A stretch of DNA of 64,000 bases, from the NCBI GenBank assembly GCA_036493895.1, contig DASXOZ010000070.1, positions 38,868 through 102,867 of the forward strand. Direction: 5' to 3'. Every line of letters begins with the position of its first letter. Positions within the stretch are counted from its first letter, which is position 1. Position numbers and translations under genes: made by a program. The DNA is from Candidatus Binatia bacterium. Lineage in GTDB: Bacteria; Desulfobacterota; Binatia; UBA1149; CAITLU01. This document shows positions 30,522-63,375 of this stretch, piece by piece. Under the pieces are notes generated by a model. The model searched no databases. It saw nothing but the letters and a program-made list of their open reading frames with translations, and was not told the DNA's origin.

Positions 30522-31673
30522 TCAGACTGCGCGGGGTGCGCAGGCTCTCGCAATGCAGGCGCCCTGCAGCAGGCGCGAGAACAGCAGCAGAGGGTCGATC
30601 GAAGAGCTCTTGAGGGCGGCATCGAGGCGGCGCACCTCGCCGTGGAGCCGCAGCAGCTCGTCCTGGTGGAAACGCGAAGCGGCCAGCAGCCGGAAATACC
30701 CGGGCCACCCGCGAAGCGGCTCCGGAAGAGAAGCGCCGGGCCCGGCAAGAAACTCGTCCCCCCGCATTCGCAGTGCTCCGCGAGGCAATCGATCGACGAT
30801 GGGACGCGCAGTGACGAGGCCGGCTATGTGAACGGCAAGCAGCGCGACGAGCTTGATCGGCGGCTCGCCCTCGGACAGCAATCTTGCGATGAGTTGCTCG
30901 GCGGCAGCGAGGTCACGCTTTCCGACTGCCTCGGTGAGATCGAACACCCAGCCGACCGAAAGGTCGCGCATCGAGCTGCGCACCCCTGCCGCCGACAGCT
31001 GCGAGGGGTCGGCCTGCGCGAGCACCACTCGCTGGATCTCCTGAAGCATCTCGCCGACGAGGTTTCCGCTTCGGCGCACGATCTCGTCGAGAGCGCCGCC
31101 TTCGATGCGTGCAACGCCGAGCTCCTGGAGCTTGCCCTGCGCCGCACGGCGCAGATCGGACTCCGAAAGGCGCCCGCGCCGGGCTCCCTTGAACTCGAGC
31201 TTCATGCGGCGGTCGCGAACGTCGGCGTTCTTGGCGAACCACTTGTAGAGCCTGCCACGCGCGTCCAGCGTCGCGGCAGTGACGACGAGCGTCGCACCGG
31301 CCGGAACGCCGTGCTCGACAAGCTCGAGAAGCTCGGCCGCGTTGTCCGCGTCGCCTTCGTCGGCACCCTCGTCGATCTCGTCGTCCTGGTCCTCGTCTTC
31401 CTTCCCGGCGCGCGACGGGGATGCCGCTGCGCTCCGACGCGATTCGACGAAGCCGCGCAGCCAGATGCAGCGATGAGGCGAAAACATCCCGACTTGCCGC
31501 AGGGACGCTTCGATTCCCGCGATCGGGTGTTCCCCGAACCGGAACGTTTCGAAGTCGACGGCTAGCGAATCGCCGCCGAGCTTCTCGCGCACCGCGGCGT
31601 GAACCATAGGATCGACGACGGACGCGTCGCCGAGGAAGAGAAGGATGCGAGGATCGCCGGCAGCTGCAGTCAT
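30522..31673 (-). CDS. holA: DNA polymerase III subunit delta
   Basis: HolA-like 383-aa protein. Confidence 0.75.
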   Translation of the reverse strand: MTAAAGDPRILLFLGDASVVDPMVHAAVREKLGGDSLAVDFETFRFGEHPIAGIEASLRQVGMFSPHRCIWLRGFVESRRSAAASPSRAGKEDEDQDDEIDEGADEGDADNAAELLELVEHGVPAGATLVVTAATLDARGRLYKWFAKNADVRDRRMKLEFKGARRGRLSESDLRRAAQGKLQELGVARIEGGALDEIVRRSGNLVGEMLQEIQRVVLAQADPSQLSAAGVRSSMRDLSVGWVFDLTEAVGKRDLAAAEQLIARLLSEGEPPIKLVALLAVHIAGLVTARPIVDRLPRGALRMRGDEFLAGPGASLPEPLRGWPGYFRLLAASRFHQDELLRLHGEVRRLDAALKSSSIDPLLLFSRLLQGACIARACAPRAV

Positions 31674-32179
31674 GACACGGCGGCGGCGGTCTTCGGCCGG
31701 CGCACGCGGCTGCGCCGGATGGGAACCCAGATGCCGACGGCGCTTGCCAGAAGGCGCTCGCGCGCATCGACGATCGAGGCTTCGACGCGAAGTGCACCGT
31801 CGGTCTCCTCACCGGCGATGCGCGCATGCACGCGCAGCTGCTGGTCGATGCGGACAGGCCTTCGGAAATCGACGCTCAGCGAGCGCGTCACCGCGTAGCG
31901 CCCAGCAAGCTCGAGGATCGCCCACCCCATTGCTTCGTCGAGAAGCGTCGAGACGATGCCGCCGTGCGCGAGGCCGTCGTAGCCGGCGAAGGTATCGTCG
32001 AGCACGGTCGTCGCCTCGACGCTTTCCTCGCCGCGGCCGCGCCGGAACACGAGCCCGAGACCGCGCGAGTTGGCCGAGCCGCAGCCGAAGCAGCCGGCGG
32101 CTTCCGAGCTTTCGCGATCGTCACCCACTCCGTCGCTTCTTCGTCCGGGGCAGCGGCCAGTCAACCGGCCCCGCTGCAA
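31670..32179 (-). CDS. PaaI-family (hotdog) thioesterase
   Basis: CFGCG..HGG hotdog motif. ATGA overlap with holA. Confidence 0.65.
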   Translation of the reverse strand: MQRGRLTGRCPGRRSDGVGDDRESSEAAGCFGCGSANSRGLGLVFRRGRGEESVEATTVLDDTFAGYDGLAHGGIVSTLLDEAMGWAILELAGRYAVTRSLSVDFRRPVRIDQQLRVHARIAGEETDGALRVEASIVDARERLLASAVGIWVPIRRSRVRRPKTAAAVS

Positions 32180-32283: not shown

Positions 32284-32297
32284 TGGAACATGTTCTA
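32284..32297. promoter_or_regulatory. KstR-type operator TGGAACATGTTCTA (TnnAACnnGTTnnA), 10 nt upstream of the kstR-like start
   Basis: Perfect 10-bp palindrome GAACATGTTC that fits the published KstR consensus. It sits in the divergent intergenic region. Confidence 0.55.
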
Positions 32298-32306
32298 ATT
32301 TCGCCC

Positions 32307-32921
32307 GTGAACCCGAGGGCGCGGCGCATCGTCGACACCGCGATCGACCTTGCCGAAAAAGGCGGTTTCGAAGCCGTGCGCCTCCGCGACGTGGCTGCCG
32401 AGGCCGACGTCGCGCTCGGCACCCTCTATCGCTACTTCCGCAGCAAGGAAGACATGCTGATCGCCGCGCTCACCTCCGAAGTCGAAGGCCTCGAGGCGCG
32501 CATCCAGGCCAGGCCGATGGTCGGAGACACACCTCTGGCGCGCGTCGACGCGTTCTTTCGCGTCGCGACCAAGGGGCTGATGCGGCGCCCCCGCCTCGCT
32601 CGCGCGATCCTTCGCGCAGCGGCCTCCGGCGACCACGAACTCGCGGAAAAAGTGGCCGCGTTCCATTCGCGCATGAGCGCGATGATCCTGGCGGCTATGC
32701 ATGCCGAGCCCGTCGCCGTGCCCGCGGGCAACGGCGCACATCCGCCACGTCTTGCCGCAAGCGAAGACGAGCTGTCCGTGGCGATCCTGCTGCAGCACAT
32801 GTGGTTCTCGTGCCTGATCGGCTGGGCCGGCGGGCTGATGAGCCAGAACGAAGTGATCGAACGAATGGGCACGGCCACCTCCTTGTTGACGCGCGCTGCG
32901 CAAAGCAACGGAGCCCGCTGA
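32307..32921 (+). CDS. kstR: TetR-family repressor, KstR ortholog
   Basis: The HTH region is near-identical in pattern to M. tuberculosis KstR (RIVDTAIDLAEKGGFEAVRLRDVAAEADVALGTLYRYFRSKEDMLIAAL). Confidence 0.8.
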   Translation: MNPRARRIVDTAIDLAEKGGFEAVRLRDVAAEADVALGTLYRYFRSKEDMLIAALTSEVEGLEARIQARPMVGDTPLARVDAFFRVATKGLMRRPRLARAILRAAASGDHELAEKVAAFHSRMSAMILAAMHAEPVAVPAGNGAHPPRLAASEDELSVAILLQHMWFSCLIGWAGGLMSQNEVIERMGTATSLLTRAAQSNGAR

Positions 32922-34113: not shown

Positions 34114-36636
34114 ATGACCATGAACGAGAGCCTGACGAAGGACGCTGCCGGCGCCGACAGCGGAGCTTCGGGGCTCGAGGTCGCGGGATGGGGACCCGAG
34201 CCCCACGCCGGCGTGCAGGTCTCGCTGCTGCTGACCTCGGCGGCGCTGCTGATCCTCGAAATCTCGCTGACGCGCTTCTTCTCCTACACGATCTGGTACC
34301 ACCTGGCGTACCTGACGATCAGCATGGCGCTGCTCGGCTTCGGCTCCTCCGGGGCGATCCTCGCGGCCTTTCCGAATCTGCTCGCGCGCCACGGGCAGCG
34401 GCTGCTGGTCGGTGCGCTGCTGGCAGCGTCGGTGTTCATCGTCGCGGGCATCTCGTTCCTGGCGCAATTCCCGATCGAGACGCAGAACCTTTTTCTCAAG
34501 CCGTGGCAGTTCTCGTTCAGCCTGTTCTGTTACTACGGGATCGTCTCGACGCCGTTCGTTCTTGCGGGCTTCGCGGTGGGAGCGCCGTTTTCGGCGTGGC
34601 CGTCGCGGATGGGACGTCTGTACTTCTGCGACCTGGCGGGCGCAGCGATCGGCTGCGCTTGCGTGACGCCGCTGATCTCGCTCGTCGGCGTTCCCGGCCT
34701 CATTCTCTCTTCGTCGGCCCTGCTGCTGATGTCGGCGGCGGCGCTGCTGTGGAGCGGCGGCAGTCGCCGCCGCGGCGCATGGCTGGCTGCGACCGCGTGC
34801 GTGGTGCTGGCCTGCTCGGGGACTCTCGGTGAGAGGCTGCCGATCACCATCGCATCATCGAAGAACCTCGGCCCCGTCGATACCTCCGCCGACACCACCC
34901 ACCAGGACAGCGAGCATTTTCATCGCTGGACGCCGATCAGCCGCGTCGATGCCTGGGGCTGGAACCAGCCGTCCACCGGTTCGTTCTGGACCGGTATCGG
35001 GCTCAGCCAGTCGTGGACCGGAGTGTTGCCGGAAGTCGCGCGGCTGACTTACGACGGGTCGAACGGTTCCGACATCTTTTCCGGACGAGGAGACCTGGCT
35101 CGCAACTTCGAGATGCTCGACCATCACATTCTCACGGCGCCGTACGTCCTGCTGCATGCGCCGGACGTGCTGGTGATCGGAGTCGGCGGAGGCATCGACA
35201 TCTTCAATGCCCTCGAGCATCACGCTCATCACGTGACCGGCGCCGAGCTGCAGCCGGTTACCGTCGACCTGCTCGAGAACCGCCTGCGCGATTTCACCGG
35301 CGGCATCTATCATCGCGACGACGTCACGCTGGTCGCGAGCGAGGGCCGCCACTTCGTCCACAAGAGCGACCAGCGCTTCGATCTGGTGCAGATCACCGCC
35401 GTGGACACGTTTGCGGCCCAGGCAGCCGGGGCCTACGTGCTCGCGGAGAGCTACCTCTACACCGTCGAAGCGATGCAGGACTACCTCGCGCACCTGTCTC
35501 CCGACGGCATGGTCTCGACGGTCATCGGGGATTTCGTCACTCCCGGACAGGCGCCGCCGCTGGTTACGCGCCTGGCGATGCTCGGGCGCCGGGCGCTCGA
35601 GCGCAACGGCGTAGCCGATCCCGCCGGCCACATCGTGGTCGCGGTTGCATCGGTCGCGGGGCACGGCAGCCAGAACGAGATCGTGCTCGTCAGGAAGTCT
35701 CCGTTCCAGGCGAGTGACATCGCGGCGTTGCAGAAGTTCCTCGACGCGAACGGATTCACGATGCTTTACGACCCAGGGAGCCGGAGCGGCCCCCTGGCGG
35801 CGCTGCTTGCCGGCAATGAGACCGAGCGCGCCGCAGCGCTCGAATCGTCCATTTTCAACGTCGAAGCGTCGACCGACGAGAACCCGTTCTTCTACAATGT
35901 CGGCAAGTGGGCGAACCTGTCGCCGGACCACACGATCTTCTACATCATGCCGGGATCGTTCGTCGGCCAGGTGGTCCTGATCCTGATGGTCGTGCAATCG
36001 ACGCTGATCGGAGTCGTGCTGGTGCTCGGTCCGCTGCTGCTAGGAGCGCGGGAAGGCCTGCCGGCCTCGGGGGCGTGGGCGTACCTTGCCTATTTCCTCG
36101 CGCTCGGGATCGGCTTCATGTTCGTCGAGATTTCCTTCGTGCAGAAGTTCGTCCTGTTCCTCGGCTCTCCGATGTACGCGCTGTCGGTCACGATCTTCTC
36201 GCTGCTGCTGTTCTCCGCGTGCGGTAGCCTTGCGTCGACTTCCTGGGCGTCGCGGCCGCGCGCGGCGCTGCGCCGGATCGCGCCGCTTGCCGCGATCCTC
36301 ATCGTCGCCTACGCGCTCGGCCTGGCCCGTGTTTTCGATTCCGCGCTGCAGCTGGACATCGGGTGGCGCATCGCGATCTCGATCGCCGTGCAGGCGCCGA
36401 TCGGGCTGGTGCTCGGGACGTTCATGCCGCTCGGGATCGCGACGATCGCGCGCGAGCACGCCCGCCTGGTGCCGTGGGCCTGGGGCGTCAACGGCGTCGG
36501 CTCGGTAGCGGGAACCACCCTTGCAGTGCTGATCGCGATGTCGGCCGGTTTTCGCACCGTGTCGTTCCTGGCGGCGGCGCTGTACCTCGTTGCGGCGACG
36601 ACGCTGCTGCGCGCGACCGCGACCGCGTCGCGATAA
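34114..36636 (+). CDS. Polytopic membrane protein with an embedded spermidine-synthase-like (aminopropyltransferase-fold) domain
   Basis: About 11 TM helices flank a SpeE-like domain (VLVIGVGGGIDI..DLVQITAVDTF). Confidence 0.7.
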   Translation: MTMNESLTKDAAGADSGASGLEVAGWGPEPHAGVQVSLLLTSAALLILEISLTRFFSYTIWYHLAYLTISMALLGFGSSGAILAAFPNLLARHGQRLLVGALLAASVFIVAGISFLAQFPIETQNLFLKPWQFSFSLFCYYGIVSTPFVLAGFAVGAPFSAWPSRMGRLYFCDLAGAAIGCACVTPLISLVGVPGLILSSSALLLMSAAALLWSGGSRRRGAWLAATACVVLACSGTLGERLPITIASSKNLGPVDTSADTTHQDSEHFHRWTPISRVDAWGWNQPSTGSFWTGIGLSQSWTGVLPEVARLTYDGSNGSDIFSGRGDLARNFEMLDHHILTAPYVLLHAPDVLVIGVGGGIDIFNALEHHAHHVTGAELQPVTVDLLENRLRDFTGGIYHRDDVTLVASEGRHFVHKSDQRFDLVQITAVDTFAAQAAGAYVLAESYLYTVEAMQDYLAHLSPDGMVSTVIGDFVTPGQAPPLVTRLAMLGRRALERNGVADPAGHIVVAVASVAGHGSQNEIVLVRKSPFQASDIAALQKFLDANGFTMLYDPGSRSGPLAALLAGNETERAAALESSIFNVEASTDENPFFYNVGKWANLSPDHTIFYIMPGSFVGQVVLILMVVQSTLIGVVLVLGPLLLGAREGLPASGAWAYLAYFLALGIGFMFVEISFVQKFVLFLGSPMYALSVTIFSLLLFSACGSLASTSWASRPRAALRRIAPLAAILIVAYALGLARVFDSALQLDIGWRIAISIAVQAPIGLVLGTFMPLGIATIAREHARLVPWAWGVNGVGSVAGTTLAVLIAMSAGFRTVSFLAAALYLVAATTLLRATATASR

Positions 36637-36639
36637 TCT

Positions 36640-38079
36640 TTACGACGGCGCCGCGGCGCTCGCCGCGGATCCCAGCGCTGCAGCGCGCAGCTCTTCGAAA
36701 GAGCGGCGCAGCGCATCGACGAACACGTCGAGATCCGGCACGAGGTCCCAGTCGGCCAGCACTCCCCAGTGCAGCACGCCGGCGTAGCTGAACAACGCGA
36801 CACCGAGCCCCTGGTTCCTCAGCAGGTTCACCATCGGATAGATCTCGCGCAGCGTCGCGTCGAGCAGGAACAGCTCGAGCTGCGGACCCGGCACGTTCGT
36901 CACGACGAGATTGAAAGGTCGCGAGCGCATCGAAAGCCGCGCCGCGTTGGCCAGAAGCCTCCACGTCGTCATGTCGCTGACGCTCGCGAGCACCTGAGCG
37001 CCGAGCGCCTGCTTGGACTCCTTGAGCCGGTGCGTCGTGATGCGCACGCGCTCCAGTCGCGAAACCGGATCGGCCTCGTCCACCGGAAGGTCCGTCATCC
37101 ACAGCGCGATGCGGTTTCCGAGGCTGCCGCGCTCGTCGGCGTGCCGCACGCTCACCGGAACGTTCGCGCGGATGCTGAGCTCGTCGGGATCCACTCCGCG
37201 TTGAAGGAGGAAGCGGCGCACGGCGCCGGCCACGGTCGCGAGCACGACGTCGTTGACGGTGCCGCCGAGCACGTTCTTGACTGCCTTGATCTCGGCAAGA
37301 TCCAGGCGCAGCCAGTCGAAGCGGCGATGGGGGCCGATCTCGCGGTTCCACGGAGTTCCCGAAGCCTGCCGGGCCGTGGACGAAAGCGTTTCGGCGATGC
37401 CTTCGACTCCCTCGACGACGTCGCGGGCCAGGGCCGCAGGGTCGCCGAGCCTGGAGCCGAGCGACATCAGCGCTCCTACCGGCTCGCTGACGCTGCGCCA
37501 GGCCTCCGCCAGCACCAGCGCAGGAGCGGTCGGCGCCGGACGCGGCACGAAACTCGGGCCCGGGTCGAAACTCTGCGACGCAAACGGGCTCAGCAGCACG
37601 GCCATCAGGTCGACGCCGGAGATGCCGTCGATCATGCAGTGATGGGTTTTCTGGACTACCGCGAAGCGAGTGCCGTCTTCGAGGCCCTCGACGACCCAGA
37701 ACTCCCACAGCGGCTTGGCCCGGTCGATTCGCTGCGACTGGATCCGTGCGGCCAGCAGCTTGAGCTGTTCCATCGAGCCCGGCCGCGGAAGGCTCGTGTG
37801 CCGCACGTGGTAAGCCAGGTTGAAGTGGTCGTCGTCGACCCACACCGGCAGGCGCCCGAACGGAACGTAAGCCAGGCGCTGGCGGTAGCGCGGAATCAGG
37901 TGCAGCCGCGATTCGACGTACGCACGCACGCGCTCGATGTCGATGCCACCGGACGCATCGGCCAGCGATCCCGCGTCGAACACGGAGGTGGCGGCGATGT
38001 GCATGTGCGCGCCCCCGTTCTCGAGCTCGAGGAACGTGTTGTCGGACGCGGACAGGGGCTCGTAGGCAAAACCGCTCAT
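36640..38079 (-). CDS. Wax ester synthase / acyl-CoA:diacylglycerol acyltransferase (WS/DGAT)
   Basis: Catalytic HHCMIDGISG (HHxxxDG) motif in a ~480-aa WS/DGAT protein. Confidence 0.85.
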   Translation of the reverse strand: MSGFAYEPLSASDNTFLELENGGAHMHIAATSVFDAGSLADASGGIDIERVRAYVESRLHLIPRYRQRLAYVPFGRLPVWVDDDHFNLAYHVRHTSLPRPGSMEQLKLLAARIQSQRIDRAKPLWEFWVVEGLEDGTRFAVVQKTHHCMIDGISGVDLMAVLLSPFASQSFDPGPSFVPRPAPTAPALVLAEAWRSVSEPVGALMSLGSRLGDPAALARDVVEGVEGIAETLSSTARQASGTPWNREIGPHRRFDWLRLDLAEIKAVKNVLGGTVNDVVLATVAGAVRRFLLQRGVDPDELSIRANVPVSVRHADERGSLGNRIALWMTDLPVDEADPVSRLERVRITTHRLKESKQALGAQVLASVSDMTTWRLLANAARLSMRSRPFNLVVTNVPGPQLELFLLDATLREIYPMVNLLRNQGLGVALFSYAGVLHWGVLADWDLVPDLDVFVDALRRSFEELRAAALGSAASAAAPS

Positions 38080-38091
38080 CGTCTCCTCCGC

Positions 38092-44606: not shown

Positions 44607-45575
44607 TCAGCTCACGACGTTCTGGGGGCGGCCCGCGGCGAACGTGCGAACGTTGGCAACGGTGGTCGCCACCAGCCGCTTTCGCGCCGCCAGCGTGGCC
44701 CACGCGATGTGCGGAGTCACGGTGCAGCGCGGATGCAGCGTCAGCGGGTGACCCGCCGGCGGCGGCTCCTTCGACAGCACGTCCAGCGACGCATGCGCAG
44801 GCCTGCCGCGGTCGAGCGCCGCCACCAGCGCCGCCTCGTCGATGAGGTCGCCGCGTGCGGTGTTGATGAGAATGCTGCCGTCGCGCATCGTCGCCAGCAG
44901 CGATGCATCGACGAAGCGAAAATTCGTCGGCGTCAGCGGGCAATGCAGGCTGACGACGTCGGCGCGCGCGAAGATCTCCTCGACGCTCGCCCACGCAAAT
45001 CCCTCGTAGCTCGCGGCGCGGGTGCGACTCGGGCTGTATGCGAGCACGTTCATTCCGAACGCATGCGCGATCTCGCCCGCCCTCGCGCCGATGCGTCCAT
45101 GGCCGACGATGCCCATCGTCATGCCGGCGAGCTCGACCAGAGGCCGGGTCCAGAACGAGAAATCCTTGCACGCTGCCCACTGCTGCTCCCGAACTGCGCG
45201 CGCGTGCTCGGCAACCGCGCCGACCAGGTCGACAAGCAGCGCGAACACGTGCTGGGCCACCGAGTCGGCAGAGTAGCCGGGCACGTTGCAAACCGTCACA
45301 TCGTGGGCACGCGCTGCATCGAGGTCGACGACGTTGACGCCGGTCGCGAGCACGCTGACGAGGCGAAGCCCCGGGAGCGCCGCGAAAGCCTCGGCATCGA
45401 GCACCGTCTTGTTCGTCAGCACGACGTCGGCGCCACGCGCCCTCTCGATCACGAGGGACGGCGACGTGCGCGCGTGAACCTCGAGCGCGCCGAGTCCGGC
45501 CAGCTCATCGAACGGATTGTCTCCAGGGTCGACGGTCGCGCCGTCGAGCACGACGATGCGGCCGAAGGCGGGCAT
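44607..45575 (-). CDS. D-isomer-specific 2-hydroxyacid dehydrogenase (NAD-binding)
   Basis: GIVGHGRIG Rossmann motif with a catalytic R..E..H arrangement. Confidence 0.8.
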   Translation of the reverse strand: MPAFGRIVVLDGATVDPGDNPFDELAGLGALEVHARTSPSLVIERARGADVVLTNKTVLDAEAFAALPGLRLVSVLATGVNVVDLDAARAHDVTVCNVPGYSADSVAQHVFALLVDLVGAVAEHARAVREQQWAACKDFSFWTRPLVELAGMTMGIVGHGRIGARAGEIAHAFGMNVLAYSPSRTRAASYEGFAWASVEEIFARADVVSLHCPLTPTNFRFVDASLLATMRDGSILINTARGDLIDEAALVAALDRGRPAHASLDVLSKEPPPAGHPLTLHPRCTVTPHIAWATLAARKRLVATTVANVRTFAAGRPQNVVS

Positions 45576-45776
45576 CCCCGGCTCGAGCGAATCCTTCTGG
45601 TTGGAAATACCCACGGCGCGCCCTTTTATGCGGCGAGCGCCGCGGCGCAACAGCAATCGCGGGGCACCTTTGCCGGCGGGGCTGCTTCGCCGGTGGGGCC
45701 GCTTCGCGCCGCTGCTTTTCCGGCGGCCCCGCTTCGCCGCGCCCGAGGGCGGCCGGCGTTTCGGCGCGGACCGGCG

Positions 45777-46460
45777 TCAGGGAACCGAGATCGACCCTTC
45801 GCCGGTCAGGTCGGCAAGCAGCTCAGCGTAAAGGCCGCGCTTGAGCACGCGGCAGGCGTCCCGGTTCTTGCCGGCAAGCGGCCTGAGCCTTTCGACTGCC
45901 GCGGGAAGAACTTCGGCCTCGGCGGCCACCTGGTCGACGATGCCAATGCGCAGGCAATCGTCGGCGCCGAGCCTGCCGCCCGTCAGGACCGTGTCACGGT
46001 AGGCGCGGACACCGATCTTCTCACGGATCAGCGTGCGCATCCCGAGCACCAGCGGCATGCCGAGGTCGAGCTCGGGAAGGCAGAAAAACCCGCGGTCGCT
46101 GCGCATGACGCGCCACTCGTGGGCAAGCGCCAGCATTGCGCCACCGGCAAAGGCATGACCGTTCATCGCGGCGCAGGTCGCGACCGGCAGCGCAATGATG
46201 CGCGCGAAGAGATGCAGCACCGTCGCGATGAACTGCATCGAGACCGAATGTTCCTGCTGGCTCAGCCAATCGAGGTCGAGGCCGTTCGAATAGAACTTTC
46301 CCTCGCCGACCGTGACGAGCGCCGCCGCGCCGCGGCTGTTCTCGACTTCGTCGAGGGCGCGGTTCATCGCCGCGATGAAGCCGGGGTTGAAGCGGTTCTC
46401 GCCGCTCGTCATCCGGAGGACGAAGACGTCGCCGTCGCGGCTCAGGTCGTATTCGGCCAT
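45777..46460 (-). CDS. Enoyl-CoA hydratase/isomerase (crotonase) family protein
   Basis: Crotonase fold. Start at the internal Met (MAEYDL). Confidence 0.7.
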   Translation of the reverse strand: MAEYDLSRDGDVFVLRMTSGENRFNPGFIAAMNRALDEVENSRGAAALVTVGEGKFYSNGLDLDWLSQQEHSVSMQFIATVLHLFARIIALPVATCAAMNGHAFAGGAMLALAHEWRVMRSDRGFFCLPELDLGMPLVLGMRTLIREKIGVRAYRDTVLTGGRLGADDCLRIGIVDQVAAEAEVLPAAVERLRPLAGKNRDACRVLKRGLYAELLADLTGEGSISVP

Positions 46461-46577
46461 GGTTGCCCTCCTGCGGTGCCGGCGAGCGCAAGCCCGCCTC
46501 CGTGCGATGCCGGGCGGATCGAAAGGTTGCGCAGGATCGTGCCGCACCGCAAGGCGCGGCGCGATCCTGCGCAGGAA

Positions 46578-47768
46578 TCAGGCTGCGCGCCGGTACATCG
46601 TGACGACGGCAGCGCCGCCGAGACCGAGGTTGTGCTGCAGCGCGACGTTCGCTCCGGTCACCTGGCGCTTGTCGGCCTGGCCGCGAAGCTGCCAGTTGAG
46701 CTCGGCGCACTGGGCGAGGCCGGTTGCTCCGAGGGGATGGCCCTTCGAGATCAGGCCGCCCGACGGATTGACCACCCACTTTCCGCCGTACGTGACGGCG
46801 CCCGTGTCGATCAGCTCTCCGCCCTTGCCGGGCTCGCACAGGCCGAGGCCCTCGTACGTGATCAGCTCGTTGCACGAGAAGCAGTCGTGCAGCTCGATCA
46901 CCTGCACGTCGTTCGGCGTCAGGCCCGACTGCGCGTAGACCTTCTCGGCGGCCTTCTTCGTCATGTCGGAGCCGACGAGCTTGATGCACGAGTGCTCGTC
47001 GAACGTGGACGGAAGATCGGTCGCCATCGCCATGCCGGCGATCTCGACGGCGGTCTTCTCGAGGCCGTGCTTCTTGACGAAGTCCTCGCTGGCGAGAATC
47101 GCCGCGCCCGCACCGTCGGAAGTCGGGCAGCACTGCAGCTTGGTCAGCGGCCCGTAGACAGTGGGCGACGCGAGGATGTCGGCGAGGGAGTACTCGTCGC
47201 GGAACTGCGAGTAAGGGTTGTTGACCGAGTGCTTGTGGTTCTTCTGGCCGATGCGCGCGAAGGACTCGGCGGTCGTGCCGTACTTCTCCATGTGCTCGAT
47301 GCCGGCATTGCCGAAGAACTGCGGCGCCCCGGGCGCGTTGGCGAAGCCGCGAAGCTGCACCATCTCGCCGAAGTGCTTGTCCATCGGGTTGGTGCGGTCC
47401 TGGAACTTCACGCCGAGGGAACCCTTCTCCATCTTCTCGAAGCCGAGCGCCATCGTGCAGTCGGCAAGGCCGCCCTCGATGAACTGCTTGGCCATGAACA
47501 GCGCCGTCGATCCCGTCGAGCAGTTGTTGTTGACGTTGTAGATGGGCACGCCGGTGATGCCGAGCTCGTAGATCGCGCGCTGTCCGGCAGTCGAATCGCC
47601 GTAGCAGTAACCGACGGCGACCTGCTCGATCTCGTCGAACGAGACGCCGGCGTCCTTCAGCGCGTTGGTGCCCGCTTCCCTGGCCATGTCGGGATAGTCC
47701 CAGGCCTTCGATCCGGGCTTCTCGAACTTGGTCATGCCGACGCCGACGACGAATACTTTCCTGCCCAT
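46578..47768 (-). CDS. SCP2/SCPx-type thiolase; the nucleophilic Cys is retained
   Basis: [13 protein letters not shown] and C-terminal [17 protein letters not shown] motifs. Start at Met 155 ([11 protein letters not shown]). Confidence 0.8.
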
Positions 47769-48150
47769 GGTTTCTCCCGCAGCCGCTGCTGCTGTAGCCG
47801 GTTTTTGCGCCCGCATCGCGCGGTGCACGATCTTGCAGTTATCCAATCGTGCGGGAAAAGCGAGCGCGGCCGGCGCCCTGGCGGCGACCAGGCAAGGCTC
47901 GGTCCCGGGCAGCGGCGGCAAGAGCCACCCAAGGCCCGGGATGCCGCTGCTTTCCCGCCGCCGGTGAGTCCGGAGCCACCCGGCCGCCGCCCCTGCCGCC
48001 GCCTTCCTACGCGGCTGTCGCCGCGTTGCCGGCTGCCGCCGGTCGGGCGGCACCCGGCGAGGCGCGCCCCGTGCTTTGCGCCGCAGCCTGCGTGCTGGTT
48101 GAATCCGCCGCCGCCAAGCCCCGCGACCCGACGCAGAAGGAGAAAGTTCC

Positions 48151-48648
48151 GTGGCCGAACAGATCGAGCTGACCGACGAAATGAAAGCCCAGATCGGCAA
48201 GCAGTCGCCGCCGTGGGACTTCGAAGTCACGACGACGAGCGTGCGGATGTTCGCGCGTGGCGTCGGCTACACCGACCCGGTGTACTACGACGTCGAAGCG
48301 GCCAGGCGCGCAGGCTACCGCAGCCTGCCGGCGCCGCCGACGTACCTCGGCACGGCAGTGTTCCTGCCCGGCCGCTGCAGCGACACGTTCAGCGGACCCA
48401 CCGAAGGAATCCCGTCGATCAACCACGGGTTGAAAGGCCTGCTCGACGGCGGCACCGAGACGGAATACTTCGATGCGATCTGCGCAGGCGACACGCTGGC
48501 CGCGCAGATCAAACTTGCCGACGTCAAGGTCGCTTCGAGCGCCGCGCTCGGCGGAAAGATGCTCGTCGTCACGGCCGTCACCACGTACACGAACAAGGCG
48601 ACCGGCAAGACGGCTGCCAGGCAGACCTCGCAGGTCATCTACTACTGA
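48151..48648 (+). CDS. MaoC-like/FAS1-like dehydratase N-terminal-type hotdog subunit (ChsH-like)
   Basis: GTG start with a GAAGGAGAAAG RBS. Hotdog fold without the hydratase motif. Confidence 0.65.
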
Positions 48649-51580: not shown

Positions 51581-52216
51581 TCAGACGTCGCCCGGCGGAA
51601 TGAGCAGGTGCGAGACCTTGTGCAGGAACGCCATCTGGCGCGCCAGTCCGTCGCCCGACAGGGGGTCGACTCCGAACACCTGTCGCACAAGGGGAGCCAT
51701 CGCGAAGTAGCCGACGATCAGGTTCTGGAAACCGAGCAGCAACAGAGGCCACTCGTCTTCGGGCCATAGCTCGGCCGCGCGGCTGGAGCGCAGCGCATCG
51801 AGTCCCCGCTGGTAGACCGGCTCGAACCAGCGGCCGGCGATCCGGGCGAGGCGCTCGCCCCCGGCCAGGGTCTCGTAGTGGATCAGTTTGGCGAGATTCG
51901 GATTCCCGGCAAGGTGAAGGACGACACTGTCGATCGTCCTTTCTTCCCGGTCGCGCGTGCGGTCCCCCGCAGTCAGATCCGCGAGCATCTTGAGAACGGG
52001 CGTCAGGCCGCGTTCGAGCACCGCCTCGTAGAGCTCCTCCTTGCCGGCGAAGTGGTTGTAGAGACTGGCCGGGTTGAGCCCCACGCGGGCGGCGATGTCG
52101 CGCACCGGCGCGGCCCCCAACCCCTTTTCGGCAAACACCTGCTCGGCGGCATCCAGGATGCGCTCGCGGGTGGTCCGGACGTCGCCCGGCTCGCTCTGGG
52201 CCTGGCTGGCCGCCAT
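51581..52216 (-). CDS. TetR-family regulator (KstR2/FadR-like)
   Basis: HTH region RILDAAEQVFAEKGLGAAPVRDIAARVGLNPASLYNHFAGKEEL resembles KstR2. Confidence 0.7.
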   Translation of the reverse strand: MAASQAQSEPGDVRTTRERILDAAEQVFAEKGLGAAPVRDIAARVGLNPASLYNHFAGKEELYEAVLERGLTPVLKMLADLTAGDRTRDREERTIDSVVLHLAGNPNLAKLIHYETLAGGERLARIAGRWFEPVYQRGLDALRSSRAAELWPEDEWPLLLLGFQNLIVGYFAMAPLVRQVFGVDPLSGDGLARQMAFLHKVSHLLIPPGDV

Positions 52217-52391: not shown

Positions 52392-53081
52392 TCACCCAGC
52401 GCCCACCCGTCCGGCTGCCCCGCGCAACAGCTGCTGGAAACGCTCCGCATCGACGGAAACGAAGACGCCCTGGGCCTCGGCCGTCACGGTATCGCCATCT
52501 CTCAGGGCCCCGGACGTGAAGATTTTGCGACCTTCCACGCGATCGACTCCCGCGTCAAAGCGAAGCTCTGCTCGAAGAGGCGTAGGACGCCGGTAGCGGA
52601 TCGTCAGCCCGGCAGTCATGCCGGGATTTCCCGTCAGCGTCTGTGCAAAGCCGAGCACTTCGTCGAAGGCCGCCGCGACGAAGCCTCCATGCACGTGACC
52701 CGGAGGACCTTCGTACGCGGCACCGAACACGACGCGGCCGGCGATGCGATCGCCGACCACCTCGAGCGACATCGGAGGCGACAACGGATTGGAAAGCCCG
52801 ATCAGCGGGCTCTGGTCGAAGAACGCTCCGGAGTTTCCCGAAACCGACGTCTCCGCATAGCCGGCGTGCCTGCTGCCGGAAGGCTGCGCACGCAGCCTGG
52901 CCGCCAGCGCAGCGGCCTCGTGCGTCGCGGCCGCGAGCTCCTCTTCGGATGCGTCGCTGCTGATCAGCGAGTCGATGATCTCGCGCAGAGCGGCAGCAAG
53001 GCGGCGCCGGTGCGCCCATGCTCCGGCAGCCGGCATCGACGCAGCTTCGAAATACAGGGGCTTGTTCCGTTCTTCTTCCAT
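52392..53081 (-). CDS. Hotdog-fold thioesterase (PaaI/4HBT-like)
   Basis: PPGHVHGGFVAAAFDEVLG motif. Start Met uncertain (53081 or 53036). Confidence 0.6.
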   Translation of the reverse strand: MEEERNKPLYFEAASMPAAGAWAHRRRLAAALREIIDSLISSDASEEELAAATHEAAALAARLRAQPSGSRHAGYAETSVSGNSGAFFDQSPLIGLSNPLSPPMSLEVVGDRIAGRVVFGAAYEGPPGHVHGGFVAAAFDEVLGFAQTLTGNPGMTAGLTIRYRRPTPLRAELRFDAGVDRVEGRKIFTSGALRDGDTVTAEAQGVFVSVDAERFQQLLRGAAGRVGAG

Positions 53082-54568: not shown

Positions 54569-54763
54569 ATGAAAGTCGTCGTCGATTACGACCTGTGCGA
54601 AGCCAATGCCGTCTGCATGCGCATCCTGCCCGACGTGTTCCAGGTGGATGACCAGGACAACCTGAACATCCTCATCGAACATCCGCCGGAATCGATGCGC
54701 GCCAAGCTCAAAGAGGCCGTGCGCCTCTGCCCTCGCCAGGCCATCTCGATCGTCGAGGACTGA
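54569..54763 (+). CDS. Small 3Fe-4S/4Fe-4S ferredoxin; P450 redox partner by position
   Basis: 64 aa with Cys motif (CEANAVC..CP), lying 34 nt after the P450 stop. Confidence 0.75.
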   Translation: MKVVVDYDLCEANAVCMRILPDVFQVDDQDNLNILIEHPPESMRAKLKEAVRLCPRQAISIVED

Positions 54764-57458: not shown

Positions 57459-58271
57459 TCAGCGTCCCTTGAAGTTCGGCTTACGCTTTTCCTTGAAGGC
57501 CCTTGGGCCTTCCTTGGCATCCTCAGTCGAGAAAACTTCCATGCCGAGGCGCATCTCGAGCTCGCGGGCGTCGTCCTCTCGCATCCCGTCGGCCTCGAGC
57601 ACCGCGCGCTTGATGTTGCGCACGGCCACCGGGCCGTTCTCCGCGATGCGCGCCGCAATGGCGCGCGCTGTCTCCAGTGCCTTGCCGTCCGCAACGACGC
57701 GCCCGATGAGCCCCATCTCCAGCGCCTCTTTCGCGCTGTAATGGTCGCCCGTCAGCAGCACCTCCATCGCGCGCGTGAACGGGATCTGGCGCGGAAGCCG
57801 CGTCGTCGAGCCACCCTGGGGAAACAGGCCCCAACGCACCTCGGAGACGCCGAGCTTGCTGCTCTCGGCCGCTACCCGGATGTCGGTGGCCTGCAGGATC
57901 TCCACTCCGCCGGCGATGCAGGAGCCCTCGATCGCCGCGATCAAAGGCTTGATCGTGCGCTTCGAGCGCAGCAGGCCGCGGAAGATCACCTGGTAGTCGT
58001 CGCGGATCCTCTGTTCCCAGTCGTTCTCCGGCGGAAGGCCCTTGAGGGAGCGCGAGACGAGCTTGTCCAGATCAGCGCCGGCGCAGAAGTGACCGTGGGA
58101 GCCGGTGAGGATCGCGACGCGGATGTCGTCGTCGCTGTCGATGAGATCCCACGCGTCGGCCAGGCGGCAGATCATCTCCGGGTTGAGCGCGTTGCGCGCT
58201 TCCGGACGGTTCATCACGACCGTGACGACGTGGCCGTCGCGTTCGACTAGAAGCGCGGGTTGTTCGGACAC
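57459..58271 (-). CDS. Enoyl-CoA hydratase (echA19-like by context)
   Basis: Crotonase motifs (FCAGADL, AIEGSCIAGG). Confidence 0.8.
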   Translation of the reverse strand: MSEQPALLVERDGHVVTVVMNRPEARNALNPEMICRLADAWDLIDSDDDIRVAILTGSHGHFCAGADLDKLVSRSLKGLPPENDWEQRIRDDYQVIFRGLLRSKRTIKPLIAAIEGSCIAGGVEILQATDIRVAAESSKLGVSEVRWGLFPQGGSTTRLPRQIPFTRAMEVLLTGDHYSAKEALEMGLIGRVVADGKALETARAIAARIAENGPVAVRNIKRAVLEADGMREDDARELEMRLGMEVFSTEDAKEGPRAFKEKRKPNFKGR

Positions 58272-62197: not shown

Positions 62198-62709
62198 CAG
62201 AGGTGCTCCTTGAACGACTCGTACGTCGCGTCCGGTTCGCCGGTCGGCTTCATGTAGCGAATATTCTCGAGCGAAGGCTTGCGCTCGGAGGGCTCGCACC
62301 AGACGGCCTCGACGCGCATTCCCGGGCGAACTTCTTCGACCGGGCACTCGGCCAGCAGGCAGAAGAACGGCAGGTCGGCTCCGTCGAGCACCACCGACGC
62401 GCAAACGTAGGGAATCTCGACCGCCTGGCCGTAAAACGGAAGATTGACGACGCAGAACGTCGTCACGGTTCCCTTCGCCGAAAGCTCGACCTGCTCTTTG
62501 GTCGGGATCGCGCAGGTGGCGCAGGAGCCGCGCGGCGGCATGTAGACCTTGCCGCACTTCGGGCAGCGCTCGGCCAGGATGCGCCCTTCGAGGATGCCGC
62601 GAAGGAAGCGTGTCGGCGCCTCGCCCGGAGTGATCGTGTAATCGAGTCGCGACGGGATCGTCACCATCTTGATCGGATCGGGAAGCGGCCTTCCTTGCTG
62701 CGTGCTCAC
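62197..62709 (-). CDS. DUF35 protein with rubredoxin-like zinc ribbon and OB fold
   Basis: CPKCGKVYMPPRGSCATC zinc ribbon plus an OB fold. GTG start overlaps the upstream stop by GTGA. Confidence 0.7.
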   Translation of the reverse strand: MSTQQGRPLPDPIKMVTIPSRLDYTITPGEAPTRFLRGILEGRILAERCPKCGKVYMPPRGSCATCAIPTKEQVELSAKGTVTTFCVVNLPFYGQAVEIPYVCASVVLDGADLPFFCLLAECPVEEVRPGMRVEAVWCEPSERKPSLENIRYMKPTGEPDATYESFKEHL

Positions 62710-63176
62710 GACTTTGCCTCCGCCGGCTCGAAGCATTCGATGTCGGAGATCCCGCCCTTGCGCTCGGCGCGCCAGCGCACGCGCACGCGCATTCCGGTCT
62801 TCATCCGTTTTTCGTCTCCCGCATCGACGGCGTGCAGCAGCGACGTCGTCGCCCCGTCCAGCTTCACGAGCGCCCATGCGAACGGCTTCTGCAGCGGATG
62901 TTTCGCGCGCGGCGCCTCGACCCACGACCAGGTCGTCACGACGCCGGTGTCGCCGACGTCGAGCATTTCGGTCAGCGATTCGGTCGTCACCGGGTCGTAC
63001 TCGCTCGGCGGTACCAGCACCGAGCCGCCGGCGCCGCGGATGCCGAGGATGCGGCCTTCGCGCAGGCCGGCCAGAAAGGTGCCGATGACCCGGCCGACCG
63101 AGCGCGTATAGGGGTATTCGAGGGTGTGCACCGCCGAGAGCACGCCCTCGTAGTGCTTGAGCTTGTCCTGGCCCAT
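62706..63176 (-). CDS. DUF35 OB-fold protein (second copy)
   Basis: OB-fold DUF35 sequence. Start Met uncertain (63176 with GGAGG, or 63239). Confidence 0.6.
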   Translation of the reverse strand: MGQDKLKHYEGVLSAVHTLEYPYTRSVGRVIGTFLAGLREGRILGIRGAGGSVLVPPSEYDPVTTESLTEMLDVGDTGVVTTWSWVEAPRAKHPLQKPFAWALVKLDGATTSLLHAVDAGDEKRMKTGMRVRVRWRAERKGGISDIECFEPAEAKS

Positions 63177-63231
63177 GGTCCTCCGAAAAGCGGGGTCAGG
63201 CTCCGGCCCCCCGGACTCGCCTGACCCCGAC

Positions 63232-63245
63232 TGAAACATGTTCTA
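63232..63245. promoter_or_regulatory. Second KstR-type operator TGAAACATGTTCTA, 56-69 nt upstream of the DUF35-thiolase-fadD-echA operon
   Basis: Fits TnnAACnnGTTnnA and differs from the 32284 site at a single position. Confidence 0.55.
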
Positions 63246-63375
63246 CCGCCTTCTACACGGACCGGGATTCTCTGCCAACAGGGGTCCGGGCTGGTCCCTG
63301 ACCATTCCTGTGGTGCCTGACCCCATTCCTCTGGTGCCTGACCCCATTCCGTAAATGGAATGTTTCTGTCCTGGG

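Follow-up and report, generated by a model that had tools for sequence, protein, structure and literature searches.

A KstR-like repressor and its predicted operator at a lipid-catabolic operon in Candidatus Binatia, with counterparts in Myxococcota

Here we describe a probable KstR-type regulatory system in a 64,000-nucleotide stretch of DNA from a Candidatus Binatia bacterium (assembly GCA_036493895.1, contig DASXOZ010000070.1, positions 38,868 to 102,867; called the window below). The window encodes a TetR-family regulator resembling KstR of Mycobacterium tuberculosis, and it carries two exact copies of the 14-bp KstR operator, one in front of the regulator gene itself and the other in front of a six-gene lipid-catabolic operon (DUF35-DUF35-ltp-ltp-fadD-echA) about 31 kb away. 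The first-pass annotation had proposed that a KstR-type repressor, with the same operator at its own gene and at a lipid-catabolic operon, occurs outside Actinobacteria, and this proposal is supported by the fold and the sequence of the protein, by the presence of the box at the regulator in 40 of 53 non-actinobacterial loci and at the orthologous DUF35-ltp operon, by the homology of the targets and, as to the organism, by an identical protein from a Candidatus Binatia genome and by synteny with other Binatia contigs. We consider it quite probable that these parts form an autoregulated repressor circuit of the KstR type, which is released by an acyl-coenzyme A (acyl-CoA) and acts on a module for the side chains of sterols or methyl-branched lipids. 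The evidence supports the view that this circuit, described so far only in Actinobacteria, also exists in Binatia and Myxococcota. What is new is that the same operator and targets occur in another phylum, where the protein has diverged and the gene context differs; the mechanism is the known one.

The regulator and its two operators

The regulator combines an N-terminal helix-turn-helix (HTH; PF00440, 55 bits) with a TetR_C ligand domain (PF17925, 40 bits), and its top four sequence matches in the PDB are all M. tuberculosis KstR (best E 2.8e-23, full-length alignment). The NCBIfam KstR model NF033703 is its top family at 123.7 bits, and the runner-up family follows 84 bits lower, at 39 bits. 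The fold points in the same direction. The AlphaFold2 model (predicted local distance difference test, pLDDT, 89.6) is all-helical with nine helices, and when it was compared with the PDB by Foldseek, the best 17 matches were all KstR (TMt 0.79-0.93, root-mean-square deviation 1.8 Å), followed by a Rhodococcus TetR protein of unknown function (3bjb) and then by the acyl-CoA-binding repressors FadR and FasR. Models of other acyl-responsive TetR repressors scored far below their cut-offs, with 19 bits for PsrA (NF053516, cut-off 300) and 39 bits for FadR (NF053878, cut-off 200). The HTH pattern had at first been described as matching KstR almost residue for residue, which is somewhat overstated: the recognition-helix core GTLYRYF-SK is the same in both proteins, but helices 2-3 agree at 16 of 21 positions and the DNA-binding domains are about 57% identical (hand count on alignments), compared with 33% identity over the whole length.

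Both operators lie where they had first been placed. When the 64 kb were scanned with TnnAACnnGTTnnA / TNNAACNNGTTNNA, the two boxes were the only matches and both fell in promoter regions, while 0.13 matches to TNNAACNNGTTNNA were expected from dinucleotide-preserving shuffles and two matches were reached in 1 of 100 shuffles. Operator 1 is followed after 9 nt by the GTG start codon of the regulator, and operator 2 is placed 55 nt ahead of the first start codon of the six-gene operon, an ATG at 63177 (minus strand). With the tighter pattern TRRAACNNGTTYYA, no extra site was found in the window when one mismatch was allowed. With two mismatches, 16 sites were found compared with 4.8 in shuffles, an excess of about threefold, and no shuffle reached 16. 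Two of these sites were inspected (4002 and 16360), neither of them at a promoter, and no further operators were gained: the former lies inside a greA-like coding sequence, as read from the sequence alone, and the latter falls between convergent genes. The two-mismatch excess could reflect codon or composition structure. The occurrence of the operator motif in the window is non-random.

Conservation of the operator in other genomes

Homologous loci were collected from one representative genome per species (185,579 species), using an alignment of 17 homologues as the query. The scan yielded 80 loci, of which 53 came from non-actinobacterial metagenome-assembled genomes (MAGs) and 27 from Actinomycetota, mainly Nocardioides. 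The 53 loci are mostly from Myxococcota (Polyangiaceae, Haliangiales and Kofleriaceae), with some from Binatia and a few with doubtful bin labels. An exact TnnAACnnGTTnnA box was present within 250 bp upstream of the regulator in 40 of them, and in 45 when one mismatch was allowed, compared with 0.04 boxes per kb elsewhere in the same loci and 0.002 per kb predicted from base composition; the binomial tail of this enrichment is about 1e-68 with relatedness ignored. The consensus across loci is a perfect palindrome, TGAAACGTGTTTCA. Its 'n' positions, judged from about 76 sites, are also constrained, to T[GA][AG]AAC[AG][TC]GTT[CT][CT]A with an A two bases outside, and these preferences agree with the mycobacterial sites tested by electrophoretic mobility shift assay (EMSA) in Kendall et al. 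2007 (PMC1995591). The kstR loci of Nocardioides (283 bits, above the cut-off) served as a positive control, with TGGAACGTGTTCCT located 100-250 bp upstream. When seven Binatia-type upstream regions (mean identity 56%) are aligned, the box stands out as a conserved island, and TGTTCTAA is invariant in all seven, including one locus (L001) in which the left half-site has decayed.

The box arrangement varies among the collected loci. Upstream of the TetR homologue, two boxes lie 22 bp apart from start to start in six Myxococcota-type loci (L005, L006, L018, L030, L035 and L043); as this spacing corresponds to two helical turns, it suggests two repressor dimers on one face of the DNA. Two KstR motifs between Rv3570c and Rv3571 were reported by Kendall et al. 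(PMC1995591). An exact KstR box also stands directly upstream of a WS/DGAT homologue in ten loci (L053, L055, L061, L064, L066, L071, L074, L075, L077 and L078), which are actinobacterial kstR neighbourhoods of Nocardioides and other Actinomycetota. The WS/DGAT gene of the window (36640-38091), which in Binatia lies beside the TetR-Rieske pair, has no box. In most of the Myxococcota-type loci (about 20, e.g. L035, at 9861 on the minus strand, L043, L036 and L016), a DUF455 gene diverges from the regulator and has the box region in common with it, and its product, a ferritin-like di-iron protein, is a candidate conserved member of the Myxococcota regulon. To our knowledge, this candidate member has no actinobacterial counterpart.

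The operator is found at the operon in relatives as well. In translated searches with the window proteins, seven Myxococcota loci (L007, L008, L015, L016, L019, L035 and L051) had the box right in front of DUF35a-DUF35b-LtpA-LtpB(-FadD), and in L021, L028 and L033 the regulator and the DUF35-Ltp operon belong to one cluster, which in L021 includes the Rieske gene. Among the metagenome loci retrieved with DUF35a, 64 had usable sequence on the upstream side; the box was upstream in 41 and at +1 to +4 of the estimated start in 14. At the operon promoters the full palindrome is kept, with both halves. Boxes in relatives also stand upstream of acyl-CoA dehydrogenases in nine cases and ahead of genes for SDR, a CoA-transferase subunit, an MlaE/Mce-type permease, SCP2, aldehyde dehydrogenase, EchA and FadD, and in three Haliangiales or Kofleriaceae-type loci a KstD-family flavoprotein gene with a box diverges from the regulator. 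These comparisons show that the operator is conserved at both promoters across Binatia and Myxococcota.

These footprints bear on two other explanations of the boxes. Another regulator could bind them, for example the second TetR of the window (51581-52216), which is encoded between both loci and near a P450 gene, or they could be mere promoter elements, in line with the right half of operator 1, which resembles an extended -10 and is better kept than the left half. We regard this as very unlikely, since the box tracks the KstR-like gene across at least 40 genomes, the recognition helix is the same as that of KstR, whose operator is this very motif, and the palindrome at the operon promoters is complete. 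The second TetR itself has no similarity to KstR, and PsrA and ScbR, the families it fits best, reach 47 bits.

An artefact, in which the motif matches arose by chance or actinobacterial DNA was mis-binned into a Binatia MAG, is hardly credible. Shuffled sequence did reach two matches once, MAG taxonomy is fallible, and several homologous loci have improbable bin labels such as Spirochaetales and Opitutales; however, the comparative footprints rule out chance, and the regulator is 33-39% identical to actinobacterial KstR compared with 83-85% identity (alignment A1) to homologues on Binatia-type contigs of 1.0 Mb, 167 kb and 69 kb. The regulator sequence itself is on record as the identical protein P0001 of a Candidatus Binatia MAG, on a contig of 364,719 bp. 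The window and the three Binatia-type contigs have a housekeeping neighbourhood in common (queA or nfeD, UDG, coaBC, polyprenyl synthase, a SPOR protein and holA), which continues through the hotdog, TetR, Rieske, WS/DGAT and GPAT genes, and the left third of the window consists of housekeeping genes (infB, nusA, rimP, secDF, tgt and holA). Because these housekeeping neighbours are common to other Binatia contigs, the window is not a stray actinobacterial fragment. In addition, the identical sequence was independently assembled as a metagenome contig of the Joint Genome Institute (JGI; L158), with which the gene calls of the operon agree. This contig reaches 8.2 kb past the window, where it carries a thiolase and a TauD-family gene upstream of the operon and no further boxes. 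The JGI annotation already calls a few homologues of the regulator 'cholesterol catabolism regulator'.

Genes and promoters of the two loci

The features of both loci are collected in Table 1. At the regulator locus, the Rieske oxygenase gene starts 79 nt after the stop codon of the regulator and is probably co-transcribed with it. The best PDB matches of its product are KshA5/KshA1 of R. rhodochrous (E 6e-46) and KshA of M. tuberculosis (9e-36), and it falls about 65 residues short of the KshA enzymes (about 390 aa). The adjacency of both genes is kept in L003, L021, L034, L051 and L155-L157. In the Binatia relative GCA_046261745.1 (L157, 10644-11520), the KshA-like gene was called as two pieces, a Rieske part of 72 aa and a KshA_C part of 216 aa, so that the gene is frameshifted or a pseudogene, unless the assembly is in error. 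On the other side of operator 1, the divergent hotdog thioesterase gene starts about 156 bp from the box, and the holA-hotdog arrangement divergent from the regulator is kept in L001-L004, L012, L024 and L155-L157. The thioesterase is a possible additional target of uncertain membership. Between the Rieske and WS/DGAT genes lies a gene (34114-36636, plus strand) for a polytopic membrane protein of 840 aa with a weak spermidine-synthase-like domain. As this protein is missing from the otherwise syntenic Binatia contigs L155-L157, it is a lineage-specific insertion.

Table 1. Features of the regulator locus and of the distal operon, in window coordinates
Feature	Position	Strand	Basis or remark
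Hotdog (4HBT) thioesterase, divergent from the regulator, overlaps holA downstream	31670-32128	-	4HBT domain; start according to 148-aa gene calls in relatives
Operator 1, 14-bp palindrome TGGAACATGTTCTA, predicted autoregulatory KstR-type box	32284-32297	.	Exact pattern match
Putative extended -10 element TGTTCTAAT, overlaps right half of operator 1	32291-32299	+	Read from sequence; weak
KstR-like TetR-family repressor, 204 aa, GTG start	32307-32921	+	TetR_N and TetR_C_20 domains
KshA-like Rieske oxygenase, 320 aa	33001-33963	+	Rieske and KshA_C domains
EchA19-like enoyl-CoA hydratase, 270 aa, last clear operon gene	57459-58271	-	PRK07799, 363 bits (cut-off 316)
Acyl-CoA synthetase, PRK07798 type (FadD19-like), 539 aa	58343-59962	-	NF005863, 716 bits (cut-off 543); AMP-binding domains
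Thiolase-like protein, PRK08313 type (Ltp3-like), 385 aa	59973-61130	-	NF006180, 660 bits (cut-off 514)
Thiolase-like lipid-transfer protein, PRK07937 type (Ltp4-like), 355 aa	61130-62197	-	NF005924, 539 bits (cut-off 419)
Second DUF35 protein with zinc ribbon, 170 aa	62197-62709	-	zf-ChsH2 and OB_ChsH2_C; start overlaps preceding stop
DUF35/OB-fold protein (ChsH2_C type), 156 aa, operon gene 1	62706-63177	-	PF01796; ribosome-binding site GGAGGA
Stable hairpin in predicted 5' untranslated region (UTR), between operator 2 and Shine-Dalgarno	63192-63228	-	Minimum free energy -34.9 kcal/mol, z -2.1
Operator 2, TGAAACATGTTCTA (coding strand TAGAACATGTTTCA)	63232-63245	.	Exact pattern match
Putative promoter, -35 TTGGCA (63278-63273), 17-nt spacer, -10 TAGAAG (63255-63250)	63250-63278	-	Read from sequence and comparison with L081

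Operator 1 appears to be placed on the promoter of the regulator. The start codon follows the element TGTTCTAAT after 7 nt, no Shine-Dalgarno sequence is present, and at least eight loci have the box at a constant distance of 22-24 nt from the start. From the short distance, the missing Shine-Dalgarno sequence and the recurrent spacing we infer a promoter that would be occluded by the operator and whose transcript may be leaderless.

The six genes of the distal operon are tightly packed, with overlapping stop and start codons. The models PRK07937, PRK08313 and PRK07798 we take to represent Ltp4, Ltp3 and FadD19 of the M. tuberculosis annotation. The Ltp4-like protein is already on record with the same sequence, the Ltp3-like protein is 65-72% identical to syntenic Myxococcota genes, the DUF35 protein with the zinc ribbon has weak similarity to BbsA, and for the FadD19-like synthetase no close solved structure was found. 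The best PDB matches of the hydratase are EchA19 (4f47, E 3e-84, and 6wyi, 2e-81), and it scores 345 bits with the EchA19 equivalog model, under the cut-off of 400. As the putative promoter of the operon lies just upstream of operator 2, the operator would extend over the transcription start. The corresponding sequence in L081, the closest relative, reads TTGGCA, 17 nt and TAGAAC, where the operator half-site TAGAAC is itself the -10. The leader of the operon, which would contain the hairpin, has no Rfam match, and the hairpin is absent from relatives. The region upstream of the operon (63178-63375) also holds a 21-bp tandem repeat in three copies (63291-63350, unit CTGGTGCCTGACCCCATTCCT). A 10-mer, GCCTGACCCC, occurs in both the repeat and the hairpin, and all four of its exact copies in the window fall within 63178-63375; this region of repeat and hairpin has no Rfam match and is not kept in relatives.

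Other lipid genes are found in the same region. About 3 kb from the end of the operon, a P450 gene (53207-54535, plus strand) is followed by a small ferredoxin gene (54569-54763, plus strand), and this pair is divergent from genes for a 229-aa hotdog protein (52392-53081, minus strand) and for the second TetR (minus strand). The best PDB match of the P450 is a reconstructed ancestral CYP125 (CYP125MRCA, E 6.5e-137); CYP124 and extant CYP125 come next, at about 1e-82. The P450/ferredoxin pair has no KstR-type box, so it is probably a separate regulatory unit that feeds the same pathway. By homology, the side-chain gene set of the region thus includes a CYP125-family P450, the EchA19-like hydratase and the PRK07798, PRK07937, PRK08313 and PRK08256 proteins. 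The last of these (a lipid-transfer protein/thiolase, 666 bits) belongs to a second lipid-type group on the minus strand (44607-48266), together with an enoyl-CoA hydratase, a D-2-hydroxyacid dehydrogenase and a CMD-family protein and then an MFS transporter. This group has no KstR-type box, and parts of it are syntenic in L001, L003, L156 and L157. Lipid-storage neighbours (WS/DGAT, GPAT and acyltransferase genes) are also present.

The proposed circuit, its substrate and its meaning

In the proposed circuit, a dimer of the regulator would bind T(G/A)(G/A)AAC(A/G)(T/C)GTT(C/T)(C/T)A at the two window sites. At operator 1, over its own promoter, it would autoregulate the tetR-kshA-like Rieske operon, and through operator 2 it would control the DUF35-DUF35-ltp4-like-ltp3-like-fadD19-like-echA19-like operon 31 kb away. 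Since each operator overlaps or abuts a likely core promoter, the bound repressor would block transcription. By analogy with KstR of M. tuberculosis, a CoA thioester, here made by the FadD19-like ligase, would release the repressor; the substrate of the ligase would be a carboxylated sterol or methyl-branched isoprenoid side chain, with a carboxylate that the CYP125-family P450 might supply. What this model says about physical binding, repression, the inducer and the substrate in the cell is inference throughout.

Compared with KstR (Rv3574 / MSMEG_6042; Mycobacterium, Rhodococcus and Nocardioides), the window system has several features in common. First, both have the TetR fold, the recognition-helix core and the 14-bp palindrome including its 'n' preferences. 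Second, the operator at the regulator's own promoter overlaps a -10-like element in both systems; for mycobacterial kstR, an overlap with the putative -10 region was noted by Kendall et al. (PMC1995591). Third, operators stand ahead of related targets in both, and by sequence comparison the window targets are homologous to experimentally defined M. tuberculosis KstR targets, namely Rv3521-ltp4-ltp3, fadD19/echA19 and kshA. Kendall et al. 2007 (PMC1995591) found KstR motifs at Rv3515c/Rv3516, Rv3520c/Rv3521 and kstR, all of them EMSA-positive, and at Rv3525c/Rv3526, where binding was not determined, and they named fadD19, echA19, ltp2, ltp3 and ltp4 as members of the regulon. The ligand of KstR is 3-oxocholest-4-en-26-oyl-CoA, and reviews place KstR and KstR2 as actinobacterial regulators.

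Several observations weigh against a KstR circuit in the window. The score of 123.7 bits does not reach the NF033703 equivalog cut-off of 280, which Nocardioides ungokensis passes with 283 bits; an Acidimicrobiales homologue scores 155 and the Binatia and Myxococcota homologues 107-132. In the ligand domain, about 20 residues form a variable insertion that is missing from KstR and has low confidence in the model. Divergent transcription from fadE34, by which Kendall et al. (PMC1995591) defined kstR orthologues, is absent at the regulator locus, where the divergent gene encodes the hotdog thioesterase. A consensus sigma-70 scan gave no promoter at operator 1 or operator 2, and the promoter elements read by hand at both boxes are therefore to be taken as putative. 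Two operators are visible within 72 kb of the genome (the window plus the L158 extension), and none of kstD, kshB, hsaA-D, ipdAB and mce4 was found in these 72 kb. The window regulator also differs from KstR in its occurrence, in Binatia and Myxococcota, and in its neighbour, a probably co-transcribed KshA-like gene. KstR is the best match by sequence and by fold, but the name 'KstR ortholog' given at first was too strong. With 33% identity, 124 of the 280 bits and no divergent fadE34 synteny, the protein is not a strict orthologue; its sequence and model indicate a divergent member of a KstR-like subfamily.

Other known systems are less similar. KstR2 (Rv3557c), the repressor of steroid C/D-ring genes, is likewise a TetR protein released by a CoA thioester and acts in the same pathway, and its match to the window regulator is much weaker (E about 7e-5) and covers the DNA-binding domain only. 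Its operator is different (AnCAAGnnCTTGnT), and its targets are the ipd/fadE30 genes, none of which was seen in the window region. PsrA (Pseudomonas, Vibrio) and the TetR-type FadR (Bacillus, Thermus) are autoregulated TetR repressors of beta-oxidation operons that are released by acyl chains or acyl-CoA, and the PsrA operator also has an AAC-N-GTT core. They differ from the window regulator in their model scores (19 and 39 bits, compared with 124 for KstR), in the fold (TM 0.5-0.7) and in their targets, which are generic fadBA/fadE genes and not Ltp3/Ltp4/EchA19/KshA. The ltp3-ltp4/fadD19/echA19 genes of Rhodococcus and Mycobacterium have the same families (two DUF35 proteins, two SCP-x-type thiolase-like proteins, a PRK07798 ligase and an EchA19-type hydratase), close linkage and a KstR box, as in the window operon. 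In contrast to these actinobacterial side-chain genes, the window set is a single six-gene operon in a non-actinobacterial genome. In Actinobacteria, the role reported for the ltp3-ltp4/fadD19/echA19 genes is to cleave C24-branched sterol side chains.

Because no steroid-ring degradation genes were found in the 72 kb examined, a steroid substrate is not established, although in Myxococcota relatives some boxes do stand before KstD-family and CoA-transferase genes. We put forward only tentatively that Binatia and many Myxococcota have an actinobacterial-type module for aerobic sterol side-chain degradation, made up of a CYP125-like P450, FadD19, EchA19, Ltp3/Ltp4 with DUF35 proteins and a KshA-like oxygenase, and governed by a KstR-like repressor that senses steroid-CoA. 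Alternatively, the same mechanism may serve another physiology, with the regulator as a general sensor of fatty or branched acyl-CoA like FadR, PsrA or FasR, and the regulon may break down or remodel ordinary or methyl-branched lipids, for example isoprenoid acids, alkane-derived acids or hopanoid side chains, or turn over the cell's own lipids. Kendall et al. (PMC1995591) conclude that mycobacterial KstR itself controls the use of 'diverse lipids', and FadR and FasR are the next fold matches after KstR and 3bjb. The missing ring genes, the WS/DGAT, GPAT and acyltransferase neighbours, the P450, for which the methyl-branched lipid hydroxylase CYP124 is as good a match as extant CYP125, and the KstD-like proteins beside boxes in relatives, which score equally as cyclohexanecarboxylate dehydrogenases, are also in line with such a role. 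However, the regulated set is the actinobacterial sterol-side-chain set (EchA19, the PRK07937/PRK08313 Ltp proteins, the PRK07798 FadD and a KshA-type Rieske protein), the best match of the P450 is the reconstructed ancestral CYP125, and the PsrA and FadR models give the low scores noted above. On balance, we regard a non-steroid role as rather unlikely.

According to the genome and metagenome surveys of Bergstrand et al. (2016) and of Holert et al. (2018), sterol degradation is found only in Actinobacteria, and Proteobacteria are without Cyp125/Cyp142. Some of the lineages concerned here have been reported to carry sterol-biosynthesis genes. In the literature covered by our search, which left out most subscription journals, nothing was found that links KstR to Myxococcota, Deltaproteobacteria or Binatota.

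In conclusion, the pairing of regulator and DNA site has been maintained even though the protein has diverged to 33% identity, and the 14-bp box is a ready probe for lipid and sterol catabolic regulons in uncultured phyla. The circuit leads to a concrete prediction, namely the turnover of sterols or branched lipids in soil and marine bacteria, some of which have sterol-biosynthesis genes. If sterols are indeed the substrate, sterol catabolism or remodelling would not be confined to Actinobacteria, and the circuit may turn over the bacteria's own sterols.

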